DNA of 27,507 nucleotides. It comes from an uncultured delta proteobacterium (lineage in GTDB: Bacteria; Myxococcota; Myxococcia; Myxococcales; Myxococcaceae). The position numbers were made by a program, and so were the translations under genes. The stretch lies in contig CAVYSY010000004.1 of NCBI GenBank assembly GCA_963771175.1, positions 1 to 27,507 of the forward strand, given 5' to 3'. The notes under the pieces are model-generated. The model had not been told where the DNA came from. It searched no databases and saw only the letters and a list, made by a program, of their open reading frames with translations. Below are positions 14,622-14,736 of the stretch, in pieces. Every line of letters begins with the position of its first letter. Positions within the stretch are counted from its first letter, which is position 1.

Positions 14622-14656
14622 AAAAAACGGCCCAGCACCTCGACCGAGGGCGGGCC
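14622..14656 (-). terminator. Intrinsic terminator in the 5' leader of the cys operon
   Basis: Transcript GGCCCGCCCUCG-GU-CGAGGUGCUGGGCC followed by GUUUUUU, 15 nt upstream of the cysH start codon. Confidence 0.7.
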
Positions 14657-14736
14657 AGACGGATGGAGTGAAGAGGGCGGCCCAGCACCTCTTCCGAGCG
14701 CGGGCCGCGAGTCAGGGACAGCTCAAGAAGGCTTCA

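Follow-up and report, generated by a model that had tools for sequence, protein, structure and literature searches.

A predicted cysteine leader-peptide attenuator, conserved in Myxococcaceae, with a duplicated hairpin upstream of the cysH operon

The window, meaning the whole stretch of 27,507 nt analysed here, carries on its minus strand an operon that opens with cysH, encoding a PAPS/APS reductase (Pfam PF01507, PAPS_reduct, E 2e-47), followed in the same row by TauE, siroheme-synthase, cobA, cysD and cysN-like genes. All 17 of the 17 same-genus genomes have a cysH orthologue, 82–87% identical. On the upstream side, a MOSC gene runs the opposite way from about position 14975, and two hairpins occupy the divergent intergenic region, where no gene of the same strand ends. 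A minus-strand ORF of 200 codons (14737–15339) was considered as a gene and rejected, having no Pfam match and lying antisense to the MOSC gene; its frame is open for only 34 codons in the related loci L002 and L007. Farther along the window, on the plus strand, the ORF 17457–18635 matches Pfam ARPP-2 (E 1.4e-111) and is preceded by a 501-codon ORF (15955–17460) without a Pfam match.

Two of the downstream genes cannot be read in a single frame. Over the roughly 900 nt of cysD (10621–11545, minus strand), the frame must be changed at least four times. For cobA (11539–12343, minus strand), the gene for uroporphyrinogen methyltransferase, one change is needed, the two halves of its TP_methylase domain being matched by Pfam in two overlapping ORFs. 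These frame switches place either the sequence quality or the integrity of the operon in doubt: the assembly may be indel-prone (genome completeness 81.66%), or the genes, and with them the operon, may be decaying. The leader of the window is colinear with that of the related locus L020.

The elements between the MOSC gene and cysH that form the two hairpins are listed below; the four segments were placed from the sequence, and hairpin A from sequence, alignment and duplex energy.

13869..14606, minus strand: cysH, first gene of the operon
14708–14695, minus strand: segment 1
14691–14678, minus strand: segment 2, GAGGUGCUGGGCCG
14677..14711, minus strand: hairpin A, formed by segments 1 and 2
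14657–14645, minus strand: segment 3
14641–14628, minus strand: segment 4, same sequence as segment 2
14627–14622, minus strand: U6 tract, ending 15 nt before the cysH ATG (14606)
14622..14657, minus strand: hairpin B, formed by segments 3 and 4, with U6; predicted intrinsic terminator

All four segments and the U6 tract lie on the minus strand where the initial annotation had put them, and its statement that a terminator ends just before cysH agrees with the 15-nt distance given above and with a T run that is present on the minus strand only. Hairpin B with its T run was also called by a terminator scan. By repeat search, hairpins A and B constitute a 29-nt direct repeat, 90% identical at a spacing of 50 nt, and their 3' arms are identical 14-mers. 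The 114-nt stretch that contains them folds at −51.2 kcal/mol, compared with −43.1 ± 3.4 for shuffled sequences (z −2.37; 3 of 200 shuffles equal), and its minimum-energy form is a nested 1:4 / 2:3 structure, which implies that pairing of segments 2 and 3 is able to compete. The duplex energies in the window are −23.5 kcal/mol for 1:2, −21.5 for 2:3 and −23.9 for 3:4. The earlier claim that segments 2 and 4 are identical and that 2:3 can compete with the terminator is therefore borne out in energy terms, by −21.5 against −23.9 kcal/mol.

The potential for 2:3 pairing was found in seven of seven two-hairpin loci (−17.2 to −21.5 kcal/mol). In the window, segment 3 was paired equally well by 5 of 500 shuffled versions of segment 2; in L014 and L013, the 2:3 energy was equalled by 90 and 77 of 500 shuffles, respectively. 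Because the hairpins are duplicates, however, this complementarity arises automatically. A further alternative stem, GAAGAGG (14694–14688) with CCUCUUC (14676–14670), had been proposed to sequester segment 2; the two stretches are indeed complementary, but the stem appeared in none of the predicted folds. Hairpin A is followed by CCCUCUUCACUCC and hence has no U tract, while its homologue in the Myxococcus-type units is the terminator itself, and it is for this reason that hairpin A is read here as a relay. Hairpin B and its T-rich tract are present in all 23 of 23 aligned Archangium, Cystobacter and Hyalangium loci. The 14-mer of segments 2 and 4 occurs as six exact copies in the 9.8-Mb genome, two of them here and four in coding-like sequence; the idea of a dispersed repeat was accordingly rejected. 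Copies with one mismatch number 97, versus 32 for the reversed control, as expected of a coding word of the type GAG-GTG-CTG-GGC.

A short leader ORF lies upstream of the coordinates given in the initial annotation, which does not mention it, and it supplies the putative sensor. Its parts and surroundings are as follows.

14875..14880, minus strand: −35-like hexamer TTGACG, near-invariant (CTTGACGGATG) in the same-genus upstream alignment
14851..14856, minus strand: −10-like hexamer TACAAG, separated by 18 nt from the −35 and by 9 nt from the leader ATG
14737..14841, minus strand: leader ORF of 34 codons plus TGA (14739–14737), ATG at 14841, MKLLLLPPVAAHRMCRHWRMCTCHQAGAEFSRSA
14755..14766, minus strand: segment 0 (GCGGGUGCCGAG), inside the leader ORF, a 12-nt box that matches the 5' arm of hairpin A by complementarity; predicted 5' strand of the antiterminator
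14722..14752, minus strand: stop-codon hairpin, whose loop holds the leader TGA and whose arms are 14752–14744 and 14730–14722

The leader ORF has no Pfam family match and no Shine-Dalgarno sequence before its ATG. It contains three Cys codons (14799–14797, 14781–14779 and 14775–14773) within ten codons (MCRHWRMCTC), spaced C-x5-C-T-C with none adjacent. In 19 upstream regions (17 same-genus genomes, the window and one neighbouring genus, two of them cut by contig ends), the promoter-like boxes, the ATG and the first codons align almost unchanged, and the region behind them varies by deletions of 60–150 nt. At the −10-like position, the relatives read TACTAG, TACTAA or TACCAA. A consensus promoter scan called no sigma-70 site at the boxes; their conservation nevertheless points to a leader promoter, from which the transcript would have a 5' UTR of only a few nucleotides, very short or absent. 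Just upstream, the minus-strand sequence GTTCGTCCG occurs twice, 20 nt apart (14883–14891 and 14903–14911), flanking the −35; the same site reads CATCCGTCATATTGGC...CTTGACGGATG in relatives and TCCGCTATAGCGGA / TCCGTTATAGCGGA in Hyalangium-like loci. These repeats are a candidate operator, by sequence, for a DNA-binding regulator acting alongside the attenuator.

Conservation behind the Cys codons was followed in an alignment of 23 units (alignment A1). The segment 0 box, GCGGG.GCCGAG, is invariant at 9 of its 12 positions in 23 of 23 units, and the position of the stop codon is likewise conserved in 23 of 23, its T being invariant and the stop being TGA or TAG in the same columns. Segment 0 is read as A-G-A-E in Archangium and as G-G-C-R-A in Myxococcus, the frame being restored before the stop by a 1-nt indel. 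Since the box is kept while its frame differs between genera and the peptide varies, the constraint lies on the RNA and not on the peptide. The outer helix between segments 0 and 1 pairs in 96.9% and 95.2% of cells of this alignment. For the stop-codon hairpin, 86.9% of cells pair and two pairs are changed on both sides; this hairpin is present in every fold in which it is unmasked. The terminator / hairpin A structure has 94.8% of cells paired, with almost no variation. The antiterminator together with the stop-codon hairpin has 92.5% of cells paired, compared with 29–51% when the partner is slid, and seven cells are changed on both sides, a value equalled by 1 of 500 shuffles. Covariation among the cysH leaders of relatives had been suggested earlier as a check on the competing helices: the alternative pairing is conserved, but covariation is thin, with none at hairpin B, because the helices barely vary.

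The distribution of Cys-rich leaders was then counted across the family. From 62 loci, 37 of Myxococcaceae were used (L029–L063, L068 and L085), and 25 from other phyla or fragments were omitted; these were pooled with 19 of 28 further loci (L001–L018 and L020, omitting L019 and L021–L028). Removal of 14 duplicates from the resulting 56 loci left 42 distinct leaders, three of which were too short, giving n = 39 with at least 650 nt available. With a Cys-dense ORF defined as three or more Cys in 12 codons, at least one was found in 22 of 39 leaders, belonging to Archangium, Myxococcus, Pyxidicoccus and Corallococcus, and in 3 of 39 on the reverse strand as a control. Two tandem Cys-dense ORFs are carried by 16 of the 39 (15 Myxococcus, Pyxidicoccus or Corallococcus loci and L017), with a terminator for each of the two units. 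One such ORF is present in six, namely the window, L020, L002, L007, L057 and L014; in L014 the ORF precedes the promoter and is likely a chance occurrence. The remaining 17 have no Cys-dense ORF and keep the terminator; among them are the majority of the Archangium loci and every Cystobacter fuscus and Hyalangium locus seen. Either the terminator is handled in another way in these loci, or the device decays easily. Over 23 units, Cys codons account for 131 of 557 codons in the leader frame; the two alternative frames give 32 of 570 and 35 of 552.

The homologous leader ORFs hold three to four Cys in L020, L002 and L007 and four to eight in the Myxococcus group. Consecutive Cys codons, none of which occur in the window, are found as CC in L002 and L007. 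The two units of L017 have 7 and 15 Cys, the second with 12 consecutive TGC/TGT codons. In M. xanthus (L047), MTHSHTPTAAPFASRCCPSCACCRQPDLGC is followed by a terminator; then come a second leader, whose end reads ...CCLCRACPACPPAGGCRASRSV, another terminator and cysH. The tandem units are located 300–500 nt upstream of cysH in L047, L045, L058, L017 and L116; the last of these, from a further genus and outside the 39 counted, shows the same tandem arrangement by eye. The first tandem leader (MTH..TPTAA.F.CRCCRSCACC...) is almost identical to the Archangium leader in its opening nucleotides. A locus titled Comamonas sp. KCTC 72670 (L053) carries a Myxococcus-type cysH (78% identical) and a full Cys-leader attenuator, so that its label or assembly looks misassigned.

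At least 11 Archangium loci have lost the Cys stretch by deletion. In the short-leader Archangium loci L004, L005, L010, L011, L012 and L015, the deletion removes the Cys stretch together with the 5' arm of hairpin A, and the first codons (CCACCUCC) pair with the remaining GGGAGGUG of segment 2. Four of these six (L004, L005, L011 and L015) retain an ORF from the conserved ATG that lacks Cys and has its TGA inside the 3' arm of the terminator. In L010 and L012 the frame is shifted by indels; the shifted frame contains Cys codons and is not closed by that TGA. The short leaders may work as a device for read-through coupled to translation, or they may be relics.

Contigs from sequencing runs provided two further comparisons. 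In a relative that is 96% alike (run X2), the third Cys codon is kept through a synonymous change (TGT>TGC), and the same C>A change occurs at window positions 14685 and 14635, the matching position of segments 2 and 4, a hint of gene conversion or of selection to keep the copies identical. A 151-nt soil metatranscriptome contig, about 90% alike, spans 14722–14591 and thus runs through both hairpins into cysH. It is a weak hint that fits a transcription start upstream of the hairpins, and DNA carry-over could also account for it. The soil metatranscriptome contained 3% of the sequence words searched for, and the other run is of unknown kind. In the RNA run, 14736–14924 has no cover, an absence that carries no weight, and contigs are blind to transcript starts, ends and levels and to regulation.

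Searches for further copies were carried out with a covariance model (R1) and by a genome scan. In the same genome, besides this locus, R1 returned only weak matches at E 0.03 and 0.12, with 150 of 17,352 candidates scored, and both were rejected as further copies, being ordinary gene-end terminators. The genome scan for a Cys-dense ORF followed by a hairpin and a T run reduced 2,608 scan windows to 18, and none of the six inspected was convincing before a sulfur gene; its threshold of at least four Cys in 12 codons misses a three-Cys leader such as that of the window itself. Across the family, R1 matched in 41 of 151 genomes at E <= 0.001, a tally that overcounts, because among 11 returned loci that were viewed, four weak ones (L114, L115, L118 and L121) were terminators of other genes. 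Below 1e-10 there were 19 matches in 18 genomes, six of which had supplied training sequences.

Altogether, the cysH leader is probably a transcription attenuator of the leader-peptide type, in which the ribosome would report on charged tRNA-Cys and so gate the operon, with hairpin A serving as a relay. The trp-style reading of the initial annotation gains support from the Cys leader ORF, the conserved stop position and the complementarity of segment 0 to hairpin A. From the sequence we infer a transcription start, a translated leader, an order of folding and a response to cysteine that would operate as follows. Transcription would begin a few nucleotides before the 34-codon leader ORF. When Cys-tRNA is plentiful, the ribosome would pass through segment 0 to the stop codon, segments 1 and 2 would form hairpin A, segment 3 would be left free for segment 4, and transcription would terminate at U6. 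When Cys-tRNA is scarce, the ribosome would stall at the Cys codons, chiefly at the C-T-C pair (14781–14773); free segment 0 would pair with segment 1 around the stop-codon hairpin, the released segment 2 would pair with segment 3, and with segment 4 left partnerless, polymerase would enter cysH. If the leader is not translated, the Cys-codon stretch would be able to pair with segment 0, and termination would follow.

Folds in which the ribosome-covered stretch was masked agree with this scheme in part. In the window, a ribosome with the second Cys codon in its A site, on a transcript ending before segment 4, gave 0:1 together with 2:3, and a ribosome at the stop gave hairpin A and then the stem beside U6. 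The 0:1 and 2:3 combination was obtained at one of three stall positions, and not at the first or the third Cys. With segment 4 present, the equilibrium minimum-energy fold reverts to the stem beside U6. The stalled fold of L020 consists of 0:3 and hairpin A, 0:3 being also an antiterminator, and in L002 hairpin A persists in all masked states. A ribosome at the stop codon would cover only the last few nucleotides of segment 0, so that the switch would depend on timing.

As to how such an arrangement could have arisen, a tentative proposal, which we hold to be possible though rather doubtful, derives the single Cys leader coupled to hairpins A and B from ancestral myxococcal tandem Cys attenuators. 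The ancestral cysH leader would have comprised two complete Cys attenuators in tandem, as 16 of 39 loci still do. The Archangium lineage would then have lost the second leader ORF, and the first terminator its U tract, and the state of the one remaining Cys leader would be passed from hairpin A to terminator B by 2:3. Segments 2 and 4 would be kept identical by selection or gene conversion, and the result would be a chain of six segments (Cys codons, 0, 1, 2, 3 and 4) in comparison with the four-segment trp design.

Three other explanations were weighed against cysteine attenuation. The locus could be a decayed remnant, in which an ancestral Cys attenuator no longer senses cysteine here, hairpin B acts as a leaky constitutive terminator or stabilises the RNA, and sulfur control falls to a DNA-binding regulator that acts on the promoter. 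Promoter and terminator are indeed kept without a Cys-dense ORF in 17 of 39 relatives, the deletions in at least 11 Archangium loci show that the Cys stretch can be lost, just three non-adjacent Cys codons remain in the window, and the GTTCGTCCG repeats around the −35, with the related palindromes of relatives, could serve as the operator. Yet the nearest relative, L020, keeps the three Cys codons, segment 0 and the frame without indels, and the 96% relative preserves both the third Cys codon, by a synonymous change, and the identity of segments 2 and 4, which would not be expected of a decaying element. Decay is accordingly regarded as unlikely.

Far less probable is a mechanism in which the ORF plays no part and the hairpins either belong to a riboswitch, as its expression platform, or are bound by an RNA-binding antiterminator. 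A 5'-leader terminator with competing helices has the same layout as riboswitches and protein-dependent antiterminators, and relatives without Cys codons still keep the terminator. The interval between promoter and hairpins, however, is highly variable, with deletions of 60–150 nt, unlike an aptamer, and what is conserved is the density of Cys codons, the position of the stop and the box complementary to a terminator arm. The Rfam scan that the initial annotation had suggested also failed to place the element in a family: over the whole window, Rfam 15 gave no match at gathering score, and within 14500–15100, at E up to 10, two chance-level matches only (E = 3 and 6.4). Finally, a locally duplicated palindrome next to a three-Cys ORF that is an accident of G+C-rich sequence is disfavoured and appears extremely improbable. 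Long spurious ORFs are numerous in such DNA, the two hairpins are plain duplicates, and the fold z-score of −2.37 is modest; against this, the exact motif has only six copies in 9.8 Mb, four of them elsewhere and coding-like, every same-genus genome has the element in this position ahead of cysH, as do other genera, and the Cys enrichment is specific to frame and strand.

Classical leader-peptide attenuators control amino-acid operons in enterobacteria through leaders such as trpL, hisL, pheL, thrL, leuL and ilvL. The cysH leader resembles them in having a short leader ORF with codons for the end product, a predicted intrinsic terminator before the first structural gene and, by prediction, mutually exclusive antiterminator and terminator helices with ribosome position as the signal. 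It differs in its amino acid and pathway (cysteine and sulfate assimilation, with cysH), in the relay through a U-tract-free hairpin A to the duplicated hairpin B, in apparently having almost no 5' UTR and no Shine-Dalgarno sequence, and in the two tandem complete units of relatives. The general model of leader-peptide attenuation is summarised in the preprint by Canestrari et al. (bioRxiv 10.1101/834739).

That preprint describes mycobacterial leaderless sORFs with polycysteine tracts (the 'Cys ribulon', Ms5788A and five other loci) that were shown to act on translation: ribosomes that stall on the Cys codons free a ribosome-binding site and thereby lift repression, and the authors contrast this with terminator-based attenuation (10.1101/834739). 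The same sORFs are cited as translational in a 2026 paper (PMC13236596). The window shares with the Cys ribulon a short ORF rich in Cys codons at the 5' end of a cysteine-metabolism operon, a predicted release from repression when ribosomes stall at those codons, and a likely leaderless type of initiation, suggested by a −10-like box that ends 9 nt before the ATG. In contrast, its output would be a canonical hairpin with U6, it has no sequence relation to the mycobacterial sORFs, and it belongs to another phylum. The preprint also sets two or more consecutive Cys as its criterion (10.1101/834739), from which C-x5-C-T-C in the window departs; in L017, 12 stand in a row.

Two other systems can be compared. 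uORFC-8-2, upstream of cysS in Rhodobacterales, is a predicted attenuator composed of a Cys-codon uORF and a terminator with U residues (PMC8632094). It resembles the window as a predicted ribosome-mediated attenuator with conserved Cys codons and a U-flanked terminator stem, and differs in its target, a cysteinyl-tRNA synthetase, in having two tandem Cys in the first stem and in its occurrence in alphaproteobacteria (PMC8632094). For Actinobacteria, Seliverstov et al. (2005, PMC1262725) report candidate leader peptides before cys/cbs genes without conserved terminator hairpins, and Rho-dependent termination is proposed. Short Cys-codon ORFs before cysteine-synthesis operons are common to both systems, with the runs near the stop in theirs (PMC1262725); unlike the leaders described there, the window has a predicted terminator and antiterminator that are explicit and conserved. 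Literature searches, with subscription journals largely outside their coverage, found no Cys-leader attenuator in myxobacteria or Deltaproteobacteria, in keeping with the earlier remark that no myxobacterial cys attenuator is described. A search for leader-peptide attenuation of cysH returned only papers that were unrelated by their listing, and one for a polycysteine leader with an intrinsic terminator returned the mycobacterial paper only.

The mechanism itself is known; new would be its predicted Cys-specific, terminator-based form before myxobacterial cysH, where relatives carry tandem units and the window a putative relay hairpin. Ribosome-read transcription attenuation is least documented for cysteine: the tested cases are mycobacterial leaders that act on translation, and the uORF before cysS in Rhodobacterales is a prediction. 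If Myxococcus xanthus and its relatives do share a Cys attenuator that works through a terminator on the sulfate-assimilation operon, it would be directly testable in a tractable model organism and would explain how costly sulfate reduction is tuned in soil predators with large genomes. The family series, consisting of two units, one unit with a relay hairpin and a terminator only, could show duplication, merging and decay, and the relay, if true, would provide a view of attenuator rebuilding after duplication. With two units in a row, the read-outs of two ribosomes could be multiplied, which would make the response steep. For annotation, leader ORFs and a terminator before cysH should not be taken as an operon boundary.

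In addition, a weak long-range complementarity was observed around the double hairpin. The stretch 14719–14711 (GUCCCUGAC), upstream of hairpin A, is complementary to 14621–14612 (GUUCACGGAC), beside the cysH start, and both sides of this pairing are kept in the two-hairpin loci. In the minimum-energy fold of the 114-nt stretch, it closes the whole double hairpin, and by this modelled fold it could mask a weak GGA ribosome-binding site and so add a translational component.
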